A stretch of DNA of 64,000 bases from the NCBI GenBank assembly GCA_965203485.1, contig OZ241892.1, positions 256,001 to 320,000 on the forward strand. Direction: 5' to 3'. Shown in pieces: positions 56,418-64,000 of this stretch. Below the pieces are notes generated by a model. The model ran no database searches, was not told where the DNA came from, and saw nothing but the letters and a program-made list of their open reading frames with translations. The translations under genes and the position numbers were made by a program. The stretch's first letter is position 1. Each line of letters opens with the position of its first letter. Source of the stretch: Longimicrobiales bacterium (lineage in GTDB: Bacteria; Gemmatimonadota; Gemmatimonadetes; Longimicrobiales; Gaopeijiaceae).

Positions 56418-57599
56418 CTAATGACGTTCGATGGCGCCGAAGTCGATTGCGACGACCAGCGTGTCGGCCGCCGGGTCGTGCTCGAAGCGGATGAATCCGA
56501 ACTTGTCCAAGCGTTCGAGTTCCCGCACGAAGGTGCGGCGCGTGACGTGGCGGTAGACCTCCATCACGAACGGCGACTGCAAGAGTTCCGCCAGCCGGAC
56601 CTGCCGCGAGGGTTCGGCCGCGAAGGGGTCCTCCGGCTCCGTCTCTTCCAGCAGATAAAGGAGCAGGCTGTATTCCCGGCGGTTGAGGAGCTTGCGGCGC
56701 TTCCCGACTCTCTCGCTGGTCGCTCTCGTCATCATGTCGCGGTAGACCACGCGGTTCAGCTTCGTCTGGATGAAGTTGTTGATGCCGTGAAGTTCGTGGG
56801 CGAAGCCTTCGAGGCCGAACTCCACGAACGGCCCGAGGTCGAACGGTTGCCGGCAACGGCATTCCTGCAGCAGCATCTTGTACTTGTCGCCGTGGACGTA
56901 GAAGAAGTTGGAGAGGCCGTAGAAGCCGTGCACGTTGTAGCCGCCCTGGTAGAGCACGGCGGCCTCCACGAGGCGCGACACGCGGCCGTTTCCGTCGCCG
57001 AACGGATGGATGGTGACCAGAAAGAAGTGCGCGAGCAACGCGCGGACGACCGGATGTTCGGAGCGCATCCGGGGCGACCTGAGGAATTCCACGAACTCGG
57101 CCGTCAGCCGCTCGATCCGGGGATGAGGGGCGCCGCGATGGACCCCGCCCAAGGCCGTGGTTCCCACCTGCACGTCGTGGGTCCGAAGCCGGCCCGGGAG
57201 GTTGTTGATTTCGTCGGACTCGATCGTCATGCGCCGGTGCATGTGGAGGATGTCGTTCGTGGACAGCGGCGGGGCGCCGTGGCCGAACCGCGACCGCACC
57301 CACTCCTGGGCGTCCGCGGCGTTGCGCACCTGCTGCCGCTCCACCGTGCGAGCGGCCTCCCGGGCCTCGCCGTCCAGGACCCGGGCGACCTGCTGTTCGG
57401 AGAGCGGGTTGCCTTCGAGTCCGGTCGTGCCGCGGATCGCCCGGATGCGGTTGAGCCGGTCGAGCCGCTCCTTCCAAGCCGGCGGAAGGACGAGAACGCG
57501 CGCCGCCTCCCGGTACGCCTCGATCTGCACCAGCAAGCGTCGGAGCTTGGGGGCCGCCGTGTCGAGGCGGTAGTCGAACCGAAAGCAGTCCCAGTCCAT
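56418..57599 (-). CDS. Fic family protein
   Basis: HPFGDGNGRVSR; GTTGLEGN; AGGAG before ATG 57599 (GTG 57620 is an alternative). Confidence 0.9.
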   Translation of the reverse strand: MDWDCFRFDYRLDTAAPKLRRLLVQIEAYREAARVLVLPPAWKERLDRLNRIRAIRGTTGLEGNPLSEQQVARVLDGEAREAARTVERQQVRNAADAQEWVRSRFGHGAPPLSTNDILHMHRRMTIESDEINNLPGRLRTHDVQVGTTALGGVHRGAPHPRIERLTAEFVEFLRSPRMRSEHPVVRALLAHFFLVTIHPFGDGNGRVSRLVEAAVLYQGGYNVHGFYGLSNFFYVHGDKYKMLLQECRCRQPFDLGPFVEFGLEGFAHELHGINNFIQTKLNRVVYRDMMTRATSERVGKRRKLLNRREYSLLLYLLEETEPEDPFAAEPSRQVRLAELLQSPFVMEVYRHVTRRTFVRELERLDKFGFIRFEHDPAADTLVVAIDFGAIERH

Positions 57600-57656
57600 C
57601 GAGTGCTCCTTCTTTGACACGTTCTTTGGGATCGTAAGTCCTTATTGTAGCGCAAG

Positions 57657-60600
57657 TTACGATTCTACACCATCGATACGCGGCGTGTTTCTTGACCAGC
57701 TTCTTGCCCGCCGACCATCGGCCTCGGGCTCGATTCCCAGCCAGCAGATCAGCTCTACTTCGCTCGGCTCGATGACAGGCAGCAGCGGGGGCGGCCGCAG
57801 GGGCTCCAGTCCCGTGCTCAGGACTTGGTTGATCAAGCGCTGCGACAGTGCGGGCCCGCGAAGGTCCCTGCGTGAGCCGGATGCGGACGGGTCACCGTCT
57901 TCCGGCGGCTGATCGGCCGAGCCGAACCACTTTCGCAGCATCATCTCTTCCCGCCGTGGCCAGGGCGACTCCAGCACTTCGACGGCATGGCGCACGCGGT
58001 CGTCCGGCGCGTCGGGCGGCGGATTGTCCCGGATGAAGGCCGCGACCCGCCGGTTCAGAGGCCGAAGCCTGGGCTGGAGGTTGGCGGGGTCGGTCTCGCG
58101 CATCCACCGTTCCCAGATGTCCTGGCGGGCCAACTCCCAGAAGTCGAAGGCGCGTTCCTGGACTACCGGGGGGAACCAAGTCGGCGTGTCCTCTTCGCAC
58201 TCGACGAGACGAAGGCAGGCGCCAACCTCGGCTTCGACGGGAGCGGAGCGGTCGGGCGACCAGTCGGCGGTGGCCGGAACAAAGCGCAGATAGGTTCGCT
58301 CCAGCTTGGCGCCATGGCCGACGACGGCACAGAAGAAGATGCCCCGGCGCGCTCCCCTCGTCATCCCGGAGCCGGTCTTCCAAGGCATCTCCACGATGCG
58401 ACGGCGGTTGGTGTGGAGCGCCTTGCGCAACGTCTGGCGGTACTCTTCGCCAGTCTGGGCCGCCCCTGCCGTCCCGCCGCGCTCGAACAGCGAGGCGTCC
58501 TCTCGCAATAGCTTCTCGATTTCTTCCCGAGTCTCCGTGAAGACTTGGCCGCCGTGGGCCGCTCCTTCAATGGGAGCCGCCACGCCCACGCTGGCCGCCG
58601 CCATCGCAAGCTTCGCGAGGATGCGTTGCTCGAGGTTGAGCAACCGGTCGAGCCGATCCACGGGAAAGATCGTGCGGAGGAAGACGCGACGATGCGGGCT
58701 GCCGATCCGGTCGATGCGGCCGTGCCGCTGGACGAGACGCATCGGGTTCCACGGCATGTCGAAGTTGACTACGTGACGGCACTGCTGAAGGTTGACGCCC
58801 TCGGCCAGCACGTCGGTGGAGACCAGGATGTCGAAGCGGTCTGCATCGCTCCCGGCCGGGGCACCCATGGACAGAGGAGCGAACCCCTGGACCGCTTGCA
58901 GGCGGGACTCGGCTTCGTGGCTGGAGCCCGTTGCCGTCGCGACGCGGCCGCGGTAGGGCTCCAATCCGGGGTGCTCTTCTACGGCGTCCGCCAAGTAGCG
59001 GCGTATCCAGTCCACCGTGTCTGCGAAGGACGAGAACACCAGGACCTTGCGCTTCTGGCGCTCGTCGCCGGAGTGACTGGCCTCGGCCTCCGCCTGCGCG
59101 GCGATATCCGCCAAGGCGCCTGCCAGGGCCCTCAGCTTCGGGTCTTGCTCGATCGTGATCTTGGCCGCGTCGGCGACTAGCGCCCGGAGAAGACTGCGAT
59201 CCCGCTCCACTTGGCGCCGAAGTCGTGCAGCATCGTATAGGGCTGCGTCAGCGTAGAGTCGTTCGTCGGGGTCGCCGTCCGCCAACGCCAGCAACTCCTT
59301 GATGCCGGTCTCGTCGTCGGCCGAGAGTTCGCTGAGGAAGGTGGTGGTCACCACGTATCCGGCGTCCAACGCATCCAAGAACCTGTCGTGGGTGGCGGCC
59401 ATGCGCTCAGCGGTCGTTCTGAAGGCGTGCGCCGAGGACTCGAAGCGCTTCAGCAGGCCCGATCGCAGCAGTCCCACCACGGCGCGAGCGCGGGCGTTCT
59501 CTTCCGGGTCGCCGGTGTCCCGCAAGTATGCGGCAGGCGTGTAGCGTGCAAAGGCGATCGCTTTCCCGCCGTCGGGGTCCAGCGCCGCCTCCAAACGGTC
59601 GAAGAAGCCGGGCAGGCGCTTGTCCAGCGCATAGCGAACCGTGACCGCTCGGGGCGATGGAAACTCGATGTGGCGGGGCTGGCCGTCGGGTCCCGGTATC
59701 GTGTCGCCTGCGTAATGCTTGCGCACGAACTGGCGGGTGCGCTTGACGGTCGTGGCGTCGATGATCGGGTACAGGAGATCCGGACTCAAGTTGGACGGAT
59801 CCTCGCGCATGGCCGCCTCGAACCGGCCGCGAATCGAGAGAATCCCCCGATCCGCCAGATGCGCGTCTTGGCGAAGGAAGAAGCGGACCAGGTGGTACAG
59901 GTCCCAAAGTGAGTTGTTGACCGGCGTTGCCGTGAGCAACAGCAAGTCGCGTCGGCGTCCGAAGAGAAGACGCCTCAGCGTGGCGGCCCGCGTCGGCGCG
60001 TCCGGATTGCGGTAGTTGTGAGCTTCGTCCACGACGACGAGCTGGTACTCGTCCAACGGGCGCTGCAGATGTTGGCGGCCGGGGCGGTCGGCGTCCGGCG
60101 TCAACAGTTGCGCGTCGTTGGCCAGCTGCTCGTACGACAGGGACTCGGCGAAGAGCTGGTATTGGGACAGGAACTTCTTCCAGGTCGTGTCGCGCAACGC
60201 GGCAGGGCAGATCAAGAGCACGCGTTGCCGCCGGTCGCGGTAGAGCTGAAGGACCTCGCCTGCGATGAAGGTCTTGCCCAGCCCTACTTCGTCGGCGACG
60301 ATCGCCCCGCCCGTTGCATTGATCAAACGTAGCGCCCGCGCCACGCCGTGCTTCTGGAAGCTCGTCAGCGGCAGATTGTCGTCGGCCTCCGCGTCCTTGT
60401 CGACTTCGTCGCCGTACAGTTGCCAGAGCACGCGAAGGAACACGTCCCAAGGCGTGCGCGGCAACAAGAGTTCCTCGAAGAGGTCGACCAGGTCGTAGGG
60501 GTCGGCGTCGTCCCAGAGGTCGTCGAACCAGTGCTTGGCCTTTTCTACGGTGGCGGTGTCGTCGCGACCCAGGCTCAGTTCGCGGTTGGCGGTCAGGCCG

Positions 60601-61136
60601 GCGGCGGTCAGGTTGGAAGAACCGGCAAGGACGCCTCCCGTCAGGATGTACGCCTTGGCGTGAAGGAACGCCTTCTCGTACCGGCGAACCTCGACGTTGC
60701 CGGACTTCAGCGCCCCGACCAGCGTGGCCAAGCTGGCCCGTCCGGCGTAGGTGAACGGCAACCGGTCCCGCTCTCGCCGAAGTTCCGTCGTCATACGGGC
60801 AAGGCACTCGCCGACGCAACGCCGGTCGAAGACGGCCTTTGGTTCGCCTAGTTGTCGTCGGCAAGGGGGGCGGCCTTGCGCCGCCAAGTCGGCGCCGAGC
60901 AAGAGGCGTACCATAGGGACTGCGGCCAGCCCGTCCGCGATCTGCGCGAAGCCCGCCGGGCTGAAGTAGGCGGTGGCGATCCGCGCCTCGCTGGGCGCCG
61001 CGGTCTCCGGCGCGCTGGAGGACTCGGGAACAGGGGTTGCCACGCCCAACAACGCTCCGAGAGCGTGCGCGAGGGTGTTGCCGTCAAGGTTGTCGACGAA
61101 GGTCGGAAACTGTTCCGCCGACGCCGATGCCGTCAT
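57657..61136 (-). CDS. PLD-domain + SNF2-like helicase
   Basis: FLHAKAY..GSSNLT (HxK), ADEVGLGKT, VVDEAHNYRN, TATP, EGVNLQ, QRHGRIDRIG; ATGA overlap. Confidence 0.92.
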   Translation of the reverse strand: MTASASAEQFPTFVDNLDGNTLAHALGALLGVATPVPESSSAPETAAPSEARIATAYFSPAGFAQIADGLAAVPMVRLLLGADLAAQGRPPCRRQLGEPKAVFDRRCVGECLARMTTELRRERDRLPFTYAGRASLATLVGALKSGNVEVRRYEKAFLHAKAYILTGGVLAGSSNLTAAGLTANRELSLGRDDTATVEKAKHWFDDLWDDADPYDLVDLFEELLLPRTPWDVFLRVLWQLYGDEVDKDAEADDNLPLTSFQKHGVARALRLINATGGAIVADEVGLGKTFIAGEVLQLYRDRRQRVLLICPAALRDTTWKKFLSQYQLFAESLSYEQLANDAQLLTPDADRPGRQHLQRPLDEYQLVVVDEAHNYRNPDAPTRAATLRRLLFGRRRDLLLLTATPVNNSLWDLYHLVRFFLRQDAHLADRGILSIRGRFEAAMREDPSNLSPDLLYPIIDATTVKRTRQFVRKHYAGDTIPGPDGQPRHIEFPSPRAVTVRYALDKRLPGFFDRLEAALDPDGGKAIAFARYTPAAYLRDTGDPEENARARAVVGLLRSGLLKRFESSAHAFRTTAERMAATHDRFLDALDAGYVVTTTFLSELSADDETGIKELLALADGDPDERLYADAALYDAARLRRQVERDRSLLRALVADAAKITIEQDPKLRALAGALADIAAQAEAEASHSGDERQKRKVLVFSSFADTVDWIRRYLADAVEEHPGLEPYRGRVATATGSSHEAESRLQAVQGFAPLSMGAPAGSDADRFDILVSTDVLAEGVNLQQCRHVVNFDMPWNPMRLVQRHGRIDRIGSPHRRVFLRTIFPVDRLDRLLNLEQRILAKLAMAAASVGVAAPIEGAAHGGQVFTETREEIEKLLREDASLFERGGTAGAAQTGEEYRQTLRKALHTNRRRIVEMPWKTGSGMTRGARRGIFFCAVVGHGAKLERTYLRFVPATADWSPDRSAPVEAEVGACLRLVECEEDTPTWFPPVVQERAFDFWELARQDIWERWMRETDPANLQPRLRPLNRRVAAFIRDNPPPDAPDDRVRHAVEVLESPWPRREEMMLRKWFGSADQPPEDGDPSASGSRRDLRGPALSQRLINQVLSTGLEPLRPPPLLPVIEPSEVELICWLGIEPEADGRRARSWSRNTPRIDGVES

Positions 61137-61627
61137 GATCCAGCCAGGACGAACCGGGCACCGGCGCGTTCCAACATGTCGAAGGGTCTGTACCACTCGA
61201 CGTTAAAGGCTTCGCACGCGTTGGGGATGGGGACGCGCCTCTTGGCCATCTTGGCAGGCTTCTCCATCGTGACGACGGCATGTCCGTGAGCCATTGCGTG
61301 AGCCACCAGGAGCGAGTCGGCCCCCGCCAGGAACGTACCTACCGCTTTGTCGAGGTACTGCTGACCTCCAGCCCATGCTCGGACTCGCGAGTGAGTTCGC
61401 TCAACCAACGGATCGGCATCCAAGAACATCTTCCTGCCCAATCGCTTGGCCCATTGCGCCAGCTGATCGTCCCCGATCGTGAGCTCCCCGAGCACGGCGC
61501 CGACGCTGTACACGAGTCCCTCGGCGTTGCCGTGCTCCAACCACTCCCAGAACCCCGGGCAGACGTTTGGTCGATAATAGTCGTTTGTAGCCGAAATGAA
61601 GACGCTTGTGTCAAGCAGATAACGCAT
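61133..61627 (-). CDS. DUF4411 (PIN-like) protein
   Basis: YLLDTSVFI..YY...CPGFWEWL, ADSLLVAHA, VVTME, IPNAC. Confidence 0.88.
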   Translation of the reverse strand: MRYLLDTSVFISATNDYYRPNVCPGFWEWLEHGNAEGLVYSVGAVLGELTIGDDQLAQWAKRLGRKMFLDADPLVERTHSRVRAWAGGQQYLDKAVGTFLAGADSLLVAHAMAHGHAVVTMEKPAKMAKRRVPIPNACEAFNVEWYRPFDMLERAGARFVLAGS

Positions 61628-62805
61628 CAACGCAGCCCAAGCTCGGTCTTGATCTTGTCGAACGTCTGCTGCTTCTTGATGGCCAGCAGTCGAAACGCCT
61701 CCGTATACAGCGTCCGCCCCGAAAGGGTGTCCGCAATCAGGTCGTACGCGAAACGCTCTCCAATCCGCGTCATCTGTGTTCGAAAGAAATTGCCTCCCGA
61801 ACTGGACCGTGCCTGGGCGTGCCTTCTCAATTCTCCAACGTAGGCTTCTCTAAAGATGTTGGCCGACAAGTATCCGGCATCGCGGAGACGCCGCAGAACG
61901 ACCAGCGAACTGACTTTGAAGTGGGTTGCGAGGCGTTGCAATTTTCGTTGCATCTCTTCGCTCTTCTCGTATTGCTGGCGCAAGGCGTCCAAGGGAACTA
62001 GCAGTTCCGCCGCTACCTGGTTGCACCATTTCTCGGTTCGATGGCTTGTAGCAGACTTTAGCGTAGTGTTCGATAGACCCGTGTTGCCCAGCCAGATGTG
62101 AGCCAGTTCGTGAGCGAGGGTGAACATCTGGGCCGCCTTGGCGTCGGCGCCGTTGACGAAGACGAGGGGCGCCAGTTCGTCGGATAGCGCGAAGCCCCGG
62201 AACTCGTCCACGTCCAGTGGCCGCGACGTGTTGTTTCCCACGACGCCGCTGATCATGACCAGCACGCCCTTGGCGTCGGCGCGGTCGGCGAAGCGACGGA
62301 CGGCCAAGGTCCAGTTGGCGACGTCGCGCCGGTCCTCTACGCGGAAGTCCAGCGTGGACGACATCTGCCGGGCGACCTCGGCGGGGTCGTCGTCCAAGCT
62401 GGCCGAGCCCACAAAATCGACGGGATCGTGTTCCTCTTCCAGGGCGTACTCGTGGTACCAGTCTTGCCTGTCTTGGCACAGGTGGATCGTGTCCAGCAGG
62501 TGCAGACTAGGCTTCCTGGGCTGCTTGCTGCCGACCGTGCGGAAGTCGGCGATGTCCAGCTCGTCCTTCAGGGGACCGCCGGAGAAGAGCGCTCCGAACG
62601 GCGTGTAGGTCGCCCTGGCGAAGCGCTCGAGCTGCCGGTACGTGGGCTTGAGCGTGCCGGCCTCCCACTCCCGGTACTTGGGAAAGCGCCGCTCGATCGT
62701 CTCCACGTCCTTCCCCGAGCGTTCCTGCGCCCATCGGAGCGTCGCCGGTTCTACCGAGACTCGGTAGGGACCGCGTTGCGGCGATTCGTTGATGGGCGTA
62801 GTCAT
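61627..62805 (-). CDS. XRE-HTH + ImmA/IrrE metallopeptidase
   Basis: LRWAQERSG..WEAGTLKPT, FRGFALSD, FTLAHELAH (HExxH), EKWCNQVAAELLVP. Confidence 0.92.
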   Translation of the reverse strand: MTTPINESPQRGPYRVSVEPATLRWAQERSGKDVETIERRFPKYREWEAGTLKPTYRQLERFARATYTPFGALFSGGPLKDELDIADFRTVGSKQPRKPSLHLLDTIHLCQDRQDWYHEYALEEEHDPVDFVGSASLDDDPAEVARQMSSTLDFRVEDRRDVANWTLAVRRFADRADAKGVLVMISGVVGNNTSRPLDVDEFRGFALSDELAPLVFVNGADAKAAQMFTLAHELAHIWLGNTGLSNTTLKSATSHRTEKWCNQVAAELLVPLDALRQQYEKSEEMQRKLQRLATHFKVSSLVVLRRLRDAGYLSANIFREAYVGELRRHAQARSSSGGNFFRTQMTRIGERFAYDLIADTLSGRTLYTEAFRLLAIKKQQTFDKIKTELGLR

Positions 62806-62845: not shown

Positions 62846-64000
62846 TCAAGGTAACCGGCCGGGAGGGCGGAGAAAGTGCTTCAGGACGGCCTCCAGCCGG
62901 TCGTGGTAGTCCCAGCCCTCGTGGAAGGTCTCGAAGATGTGGACCAGCTGGCGCTCGGTCAGGCTGTAGCAGTGGGCGACGACAGCGTCGAGTTGGTGGA
63001 TCAGGTCCTGCTTCTCGTCCTCTGCGAGCGGTCCCCAGTCCACGCCGACCGCCTTGGCCCATTCGGCGAAGCGGTCGTCCGGGCAGGCGAGGCGGCCGGC
63101 GAGTTCGACAGTGCGCTTCCAAAGGGGGTCGTTCCGACCTGGACGGGGGATAGGGAAGGGGTTGATGACGAAGTAGGTGACGCCTGTCTCGACGAACCGG
63201 CGGGCGTACCAGTCGAGGGGGATGGAGCATAAGACGCCCAGCAGAAACGCTTGGTCCTTCTCGTCGCCGCGAGGCCAAAGGAAGTAGGGTGCCTTGTGCG
63301 CGACGAACACCTTGGGCGGAAGGAGGCAGGCGATGATGGTGCGTGGGTCCGTTGCACGCGCCACGTCTCGGAAGGCGATTCTCGGCCGGTAAACGGGCAG
63401 TGTTGATTGATCCCGAAGGTGGCCTATTGAAAATTCCTTATGCGCGCTGTCGCGTCGGTTCTTCGCGGCCCTAATCCGCTTCTTCTGCAACCAATCCAGA
63501 ACGGGAGTTGGCTTGGCCCAGGCGTAGGGCGCACCCTTGTCCGGGTCCCACAAGTCGAAGGACGCGCCCTTGTACACGGGCCAGTATTCCAACTCCAACT
63601 CGAAGCTCGTCATGTGCTTCTGTGCCGTCGCGTGGAGTTCCGTGATCGGTCGGGCACGCCATCGGACGGTTTCTCGAACACCATGAATGCCTTCTGGTTC
63701 GTGGCGTCCATCTCGCGGTCGGGACGAGCGCGCCAGCCTCTTGTGTCTGTCCCCCCTCCCCCCCCCCCCCCCCCCCCCCGCCTATAATCATGTCCTCGCG
63801 TGTGTCAAGACGCGGCGCTGCGGACATTTGGGCGAACACGCTCGCCGATTCGTCGGTCGGTAGCAGGGGCAGCGATGCAACATCGTTCCATTGCTCGATG
63901 TCGTGTCGATAGAACACTAGAGGCTCCCTGGCCACACCGGCTCTGAACGCGTGTAGGTCCGGATAAGGCCCGCTCATGCGCAACCGAGATTCTCCTTCAT
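62846..64000 (-). CDS. Type IIG (Eco57I-like) RM enzyme, 3' part; frameshifted at a poly-G tract; 5' end outside window
   Basis: Upstream frame ..SLPLLPTDESASVFAQMSAAPRLD; downstream frame WPVYKGASFDLWDP, RPRIAFRDVARATDPRTIIACL, LCSIPLDWYARR, LDAVVAHCY. Confidence 0.82.
63599..63735 (-). repeat. Two tandem diverged 21-codon cassettes, 74-nt period
   Basis: 63735-63673 WRARPDREMDATNQKAFMVFE; 63661-63599 WRARPITELHATAQKHMTSFE. Confidence 0.88.
63751..63779 (-). repeat. Intragenic G22-A-G6 tract
   Basis: C6 63751-63756, T, C22 63758-63779 on the plus strand. Confidence 0.92.

Follow-up and report, generated by a model that had tools for sequence, protein, structure and literature searches.

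Specificity switching driven by DNA repeats is already known. In the H. pylori type IIG genes JHP1272 (Hpy99XIV) and HP1353-1354, a homopolymer shifts the motif from GGWTAA to GGWCNA, and there are an OFF state and two ON states (PMC3936762). Two tracts act in that case, a C-terminal domain gained by read-through displaces part of the target recognition domain (TRD), and both forms are single chains. In NgoAV and in the extended hsdS genes of Mannheimia and Fusobacterium, repeat length likewise gives two specificities, and the truncated product is active by assembly. In these genes the repeat separates complete TRDs and does no more than shorten or lengthen the product; there is neither read-through of an off-frame cassette nor a restart (PMC7383803). 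The hsdS shufflons and invertons make a mutually exclusive choice of stored specificity modules and need recombination to do so. MmeI (PMC4833311) and CamA (PMC8187626) carry an i/i+3 residue pair early in the TRD, and each has a single cassette and no switch. Type-2 BREX-related systems combine an N6-MTase with an HKD/PLD-SNF2 helicase and also carry DUF499 and DUF3780; the string "phase vari" has zero occurrences in the text of that source (PMC12839542).

The window, a stretch of 64,000 nucleotides of Longimicrobiales DNA (genome G000), contains the 3' part of a gene that resembles each of these systems in some respects and differs in others. As in JHP1272, a homopolymer lies in a type IIG gene and is proposed to change the motif, with one OFF and two ON states. 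Unlike JHP1272, the gene has one tract and tandem internal alleles that do not share a frame, and in the frame of the upstream allele a stop precedes most of the TRD. Rather than adding a C-terminal domain to a complete enzyme, the tract sits at the TRD start, and the short product lacks ~255 aa. The repeat of the NgoAV type separates two TRDs of a type I S subunit, whereas here there is one MTase-fused TRD and the unit is 25 codons. In contrast to the shufflons and invertons, the order of the DNA does not change, and each module spans only ~25 codons. The TRD is of the same fold family as those of MmeI and CamA. An N6-MTase occurs together with a PLD-SNF2 helicase, as in the BREX-related systems, but neither DUF499 nor DUF3780 was found at this locus. 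Matches to DUF499 in G000 lie at ~1.11 and 2.93 Mb, with none near 0.32 Mb; DUF3780 gave no match in G000, and the control genomes gave no match either. The two DUF499 genes (G000:C1 1113078-1114271 and 2925691-2927595) mark possible BREX-related loci. Our literature search, which covered main texts and subscription papers incompletely, found no description of frame-selected internal cassettes; tables compiled from REBASE (PMC7383803; 10.1101/2020.06.18.137471) could affect how novel such cassettes are.

The features of the switch, given with the evidence for each, are as follows.

63780..64000, minus strand: 3' end of the N-terminal methyltransferase part (PADLOC REase_MTase_IIG PDLC03620, E 6e-231; Pfam Eco57I).
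63758..63779, minus strand: G22 tract, the frame selector (3n = cassette 2, 3n+2 = cassette 1, 3n+1 = neither; tract-length script and relatives).
63736..63757, minus strand: 22-nt linker carrying a second short run, G6 (sequence).
63662..63735, minus strand: cassette 1 (c1), R-E-M-D allele (R at 63717-63715, D at 63708-63706).
63587..63661, minus strand: cassette 2 (c2), T-E-L-H allele (T at 63643-63641, H at 63634-63632; pN/pS 0.16).
63610..63613, minus strand: ATGA overlap of the c1-frame stop and the proposed start of a separate C-terminal chain (restart inferred).
62846..63613, minus strand: 255-aa C-terminal ORF, the remainder of the TRD plus a helical tail (PDLC03620, E 5e-64).
63471..63473, minus strand: third-frame stop, ending the state as assembled, presumed OFF (tract-length script).

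The N-terminal part comprises 1131 codons up to the tract; its open frame continues ~3.2 kb past the window end, where most of the 5' part of the gene lies. It is a gamma-class N6-adenine MTase with NPPW, and it terminates in PRLD and a linker. Cassette 1 is a complete 25-codon module minus one base and is free of stops when read in the frame of c2, which itself is in frame with the C-terminus. The two cassettes start 74 nt apart (63735 and 63661) and share 12/21 residues and 37/63 bases. When tract length was varied by script, G18, G21 and G24 traversed c1 off-frame and then gave c2 and the C-terminus; G17, G20, G23 and G26 placed c1 in frame up to a TGA stop at 63612-63610; and G19, G22 and G25 gave the third frame, ending at the stop 63473-63471. 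The c1 frame ends 16 residues past the module and ahead of the rest of the recognition domain. As assembled, G000 sits in the third, presumed OFF, frame, and its 22-base homopolymer call may err by one base.

The initial annotation had described the G22 tract, the 74-nt spacing, the 12/21 residue identity and the frame outcomes of different tract lengths, all of which agree with the sequence and with the script. Its observation that the R-A-R-P codons of c1 and c2 differ at each third position is likewise correct. Its coordinates hold for the switch region but omit both the 255-aa C-terminal ORF (63613-62846) and the gene's 5' part. It also missed the overlap of the c1-frame stop with the ATG of this ORF.

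The reading that we consider probable is a phase-variable specificity selector, in which the tract picks c2 in one chain, c1 in two chains, or OFF. A 25-codon module would be held twice, as two alleles one base out of step, directly behind a slippage-prone repeat that would change length in living cells. With a tract of 3n, c1 would be translated as a junk loop and one full-length chain would carry c2 (T...H). With 3n+2, translation of an N-terminal chain, with c1 (R...D) and a tail of 16 residues, would halt at the ATGA. A 255-aa C-terminal chain would then be made by translational coupling, and the two chains would assemble with c1 in the slot. A tract of 3n+1 would be OFF. The two active states would recognize motifs differing at about one base pair, which would be methylated and, with the PLD-SNF2 partner, restricted.

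Both cassettes correspond to natural alleles. After P0071 was dropped, 108 single-cassette homologues remained, among which 28 carry R...D, 74 a small residue...H, 5 Q-G-D-x-N and 1 another combination, with none mixed. The alleles are R-x-x-D versus T/A/S-x-x-H, and the key positions, three residues apart, co-vary. In a quick tree, the two allele types alternate between sister proteins. These findings agree with the earlier suggestion of two separately evolved alleles, since both occur singly in full-length homologues. At the level of exact strings this suggestion fared unevenly: DREMDATNQK is present in P0026 and P0075 and TELHAT in many proteins, but exact ITELH occurs only in double-cassette genes.

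Fold matches place the cassettes at the TRD start, as a placement by range. An AlphaFold model of a natural read-through protein (pLDDT 70.6), in which the inserted c1 loop is disordered (pLDDT <50), matches M.BseCI, CamA, PglX, BpuSI and MmeI. The match to CamA has Z 14.7 and rmsd 5.3 over 364 aligned residues, and that to MmeI has Z 10.2 and rmsd 6.0 over 335; identity to both is 12-14%, and no residue-level equivalence was obtained. The TRD match starts near model residue 450-453, just ahead of the tract. The C-chain by itself, modeled from an orthologous chain, aligns from CamA 369 and MmeI 670 and also matches the M.BseCI TRD. The stretch bracketed by these two boundaries contains MmeI Y642/K645 and CamA Q346/I349. 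Each of these i/i+3 pairs reads one base pair, and altering the MmeI pair alters its motif (PMC4833311; PMC8187626). Placement of the cassettes is by range only, and straight extrapolation puts their pair 8-12 residues off the CamA and MmeI pairs. At the TRD start, the module can be described as a beta-strand together with a loop that bears an i/i+3 residue pair. The cassettes are alleles of a probable base-reading loop, in which the pair would contact a base, and it is very likely that they confer different motifs.

The enzyme class can be assigned with some qualification. Successive parts of one PADLOC type IIG profile match the 1131 codons that precede the tract and the 271 that begin with c2, and a gamma-class N6-adenine MTase and a C-terminal TRD lie within one gene (profile, Eco57I and fold). 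The earlier label "type IIG" is supported to this extent; an active nuclease domain is not, as family searches gave no nuclease match in the methylase and no E-x-K motif is evident by eye in its consensus. An Atlas lead (score 0.90) points to a cluster in which 22% of the proteins carry MmeI_N. Searches for sequence relatives among solved structures returned one unrelated weak match each. Downstream of the methylase lie three genes.

61627..62805, minus strand: Peptidase_M78 (IrrE/ImmA-like) gene, probably cargo (Pfam).
61133..61630, minus strand: DUF4411 gene, probably cargo (Pfam).
57657..61196, minus strand: PLD-SNF2 helicase, likely restriction partner (Pfam, PADLOC; role inferred).

Since its own chain gave no nuclease match, the methylase may be the methylation and specificity partner of the PLD-SNF2 helicase, encoded three genes downstream. 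Other assignments fell below cut-off, both for DISARM class I DrmMI/DrmD (DrmD 169 bits vs 610) and for BREX PglX (~22 bits vs 400-900). The surroundings, at L001 11047-17223 beyond the window and at 56418-57620 within it, have the character of a defence island. They include two genes of the WYL type, one Schlafen/AlbA_2 gene, an AAA ATPase that has a PD-(D/E)xK tail, a 290-aa ORF with a PDC-M33A match and, downstream, a Fic gene.

The layout is not an assembly artefact. In three of the four runs (X5 and X7, which are one sample, and X8), one contig spans 62700-63741, including both cassettes, with 0 differences; run X1 yielded small pieces only and carries no evidential weight. The concern that the assembly is a chimera of two strains is answered by these contigs from three runs and two samples. 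Homologues exclude a chance origin: each cassette fits the motif of the family, and further genomes show the layout again. Contigs break only within the tract, which is compatible with mixed lengths and equally with sequencing stutter. No 74-nt deletion joint is listed among the contigs of the four runs, a partial answer to the earlier deletion check, since contigs lose rare variants, so that rare deletions or a spread of tract lengths cannot be read from them.

Related genomes indicate that the tract acts as a frame switch. This gene and four relatives have tract lengths of G8, G16, G22, G22 and G26 at the same position. The 11 DNA loci with a readable state comprise five in the c1 frame, four in the c2 frame and two in the third frame, in assemblies whose homopolymer calls may be one base off; L015, at a contig end, has no readable state. 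L012, L013, L086 and L089 are assembled in the c1 state, and L016, L083 and L087 in the c2 state. A long coding-region repeat thus sets the frame, and both length and frame differ among related genomes, as expected from the earlier proposal of phase switching by poly-G. The tract is a probable member of a larger set of contingency loci in G000. Runs of G or C with 14-30 bases number 42 there, and there are nearly none of 10-13. By eye, some lie in other methylase genes (near 624966, 2029191, 2166441 and 3323431) and others near the starts of secreted proteins, and a tandem repeat of 925 bp at 2.328-2.333 Mb holds a cluster of eight. Off-frame pairs with 12/21 identity, sought across the whole genome, numbered 139, at least 80 of which passed a filter. 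Among the matches listed, none was a second cassette pair behind a tract, and most were arrays of period 71-77 and dispersed repeats, so that the scan gives a poor chance control. Arrays of period 71-77 nt at G000:C1 about 3365700-3370300 and 103850-104320 are probably CRISPR.

In family 1, a repeat followed by off-frame c1 and in-frame c2 is found in six genomes and in about two dozen database proteins, some overlapping. The closest loci with the double layout, L012 (G16), L013 (G26), L014 (G8) and L016 (G22), are Longimicrobiales records with the same 74-nt offset; L015, which is an Acidobacteriota record, combines an AGCC repeat with an 83-nt offset. Read-through proteins with the junk insertion account for 11/120 longer homologues, and in two of the 11 the insertion follows poly-Pro instead of poly-Gly. 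Among 30 matches to a c1-state query, which partly duplicate the DNA loci, 12 are c1-state chains, three are in the third frame (one is this gene) and four end at the G run. Decay is also seen: L014 (4927-4990) has the G8 tract and a TAG within c1, and c1 of P0133 is frame-shifted internally. The TAG of L014 was considered as a recoding signal and rejected, as it is a single transition from the CAG of L016. A quick, poorly resolved tree needs three label changes for the family-1 doubles, and is compatible with a single origin of the double layout within this family.

Wider searches added little. When 45 residues of P0051 served as the query of a region search, P0051 alone came back (1/43 candidates), and a viral scan with the stand-alone C-chain confirmed none of four stretches. 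A phylum search with P0157 at E 1e-70, run without a positive control, gave 0/201 genomes. A class search around G458 gave zero loci beyond those already found, and a plasmid search gave distant matches only, all <60% identical.

A paralogous family 2, ~40% identical, has the double cassette at six loci in six genomes, with the allele order reversed. The repeat is followed by an off-frame A-E-L-H cassette and, 49 nt on, by an R-E-[LM]-D cassette, so that the sign of the offset is reversed relative to the 74/83 nt of family 1. The repeats are CCCA, CCAG, G or C, and in L108 (about 1400-1510) the repeat is degenerate: short runs of C and of A stand where a long repeat would be, and both alleles are intact. 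Among family-2 singles, L122 carries a mixed R...H allele. The family-2 paralog L009 (G000:C1 near 2029191), with an in-frame G20 ~190 nt before a single cassette, is a plain ON/OFF version of the switch. Repeats likewise precede single cassettes in L070, L097, L162 and L071.

The most elaborate case is L102 (536-2377), in which (GA)25 precedes three cassettes at 599, 667 and 762, one in each frame. After the cassettes come C-domain 1 and a stand-alone C-chain gene that starts 19 residues before WPV and whose C-terminal domain is 52% identical to C-domain 1. The stand-alone protein is present on seven contigs, and this contig may be misbinned, because an identical protein is recorded from an Acidimicrobiaceae MAG. 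P0312 represents the third-cassette state with a short repeat. Since repeats, offsets and allele orders differ, these layouts point to several independent origins.

Cassette 1 appears to be maintained as protein. Across five loci, its pN/pS is 0.13 in its own frame versus 1.44 in the read-through frame, compared with 0.16 for c2 and, as a control, 0.33 for 60 downstream codons. Third codon positions take 11 of the 17 changes in c1 (p 0.008; same loci). A hidden R-E-[MLI]-D-A-[TS] is present in the shifted frame, in one register, in all 11 read-through proteins and in P0314, which has a CT-type repeat; the control rate is 38/3000 windows. In family 2, selection on c1 is weaker (pN/pS 0.42, p 0.056). 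These comparisons indicate that purifying selection acts on c1 of family 1 in the cassette's own frame. Because this holds although that frame stops early, c1 is probably expressed rather than a silent spare awaiting deletion. The double layout is almost certainly real and selected.

Ordinary ON/OFF phase variation beside a relic duplication, or an assembly chimera, is one alternative account. The abundance of G/C runs of at least 14 bases in G000, several in other methylase genes, and the broken c1 of L014 would fit it. We judge it very improbable in view of the selection on c1 in its own frame, the recurrences with other repeats and the other allele order, and the single contigs that span both cassettes.

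The initial annotation regarded the c1 frame as OFF and c1 as a stored spare, to be installed by a 74-nt deletion; gene conversion could serve the same end. Cassette 1 is complete, and its end, K-P-S-D-G, would join YWPVYKG cleanly. In addition, the long-linker R...D singles P0008 and P0026, which lie among doubles in the poorly resolved tree, could be products of such events. A deletion, however, destroys the double layout and so cannot maintain selection on c1 where the layout is retained. A silent spare would decay, and deletion would erase the layout that is conserved; instead, c1 is conserved at the protein level and the double layout persists across genera. No deletion joint is found in the contigs, and only the 37/63 bases noted above are common to the cassettes. 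Cassette 2 is always the H allele in family 1 (6/6 DNA loci and 11 proteins), with no conversion product seen, and the three cassettes of L102 in three frames fit frame selection only. A stored spare is therefore unlikely.

Ribosomal frameshifting, or a hop past the key codons of c2, could bring c1 into a single chain and would likewise explain why c1 is under selection. For a fragment of an RM gene, suppression of frameshifts at repeats has been reported (10.64898/2026.04.01.715767). By eye, the aligned loci have no conserved slippery heptamer and no matched take-off and landing codons, and the sign of the offset differs between the families. Recoding of this kind seems to us more doubtful than a stored spare.

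A second chain would be the simplest route to the use of c1. Translational coupling occurs at ATGA overlaps, and the c1-frame stop falls at the c2 Met in 6/6 DNA loci and 12/12 c1-state tails. The same overlap is present by default in 28/42 single-cassette genes, a count that left out duplicate loci and family-2 loci, and by codon arithmetic a +1-frame TGA usually overlaps a start. Fisher values (0.003 and 0.004) overstate the difference because the loci are kin. Upstream of the family-1 restart there is no real Shine-Dalgarno site (-0.5 to -3.5 kcal/mol). An anti-SD comparison for family 1 was set aside on account of weak energies, differing windows and kin loci. In family 2, GTG-CG-TGA is found in 6/6 doubles versus 1/7 singles, with GGAG upstream in 4/6 doubles. 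The ATG overlapped by the c1-frame stop of L102 is in the wrong frame, so coupling there cannot yield C-domain 1.

Stand-alone C-chains starting near the c2 Met exist among homologues, and the C-chain is predicted to fold by itself (pLDDT 78.6). A model of the L012 split pair reached an ipSAE of 0.92, versus 0.00 for the best control, with c1 residues 259-283 in the interface. Its runs share at least 73% of contacts, and partner pLDDT is at least 89. The ipSAE mark is reached by 116/157 solved pairs and 2/215 mismatched pairs; a pass here may reflect likeness only, because the chains are halves of one gene and the alignments are of intact homologues. Taken with the selection on c1, these observations suggest that the c1 state is likely to be active as a split enzyme.

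The c1 chain might instead act in trans, with a full-length c2 chain made by transcriptional slippage or with the C-chain of another gene, giving a mixed or relaxed specificity. It is established that RNA polymerase slips on long homopolymers, and L102 has a separate C-chain gene. A restart in family 2 would place c2's own key residues on the C-chain, where they would compete with c1. Against this, the C-chain query found no second copy in G000, its two matches being this gene and a 38% identical paralog, and tetranucleotide repeats serve the same layout. We rate action in trans as marginally less plausible even than recoding.

If the frame-selection reading is correct, then these genes may be viewed as a recombination-free analogue of mutually exclusive exons that evolved several times in one enzyme family. 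Each repeat length would pick one of two or three tandem recognition loops, leave the others to be translated as junk and yield a different motif for methylation and restriction, with non-terminal choices completed by a separate C-chain. We hold this generalization with a little less confidence than the selector model for the single gene. It would join domain extension and recombination as a third way to switch specificity, and the switch would mark a split-tolerant site in a gamma-class TRD. The enzyme family is unstudied, and no solved structure is related to it by sequence; its recognition code would become directly testable through paired natural alleles of a base-reading loop carried by an otherwise identical enzyme. 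Methylase genes with a frameshift are commonly taken to be OFF or to be pseudogenes. An active c1 state would mean that many of the family's split genes represent alternative ON states, and that one clonal population holds two or three self/non-self codes interchanged by a one-base switch.
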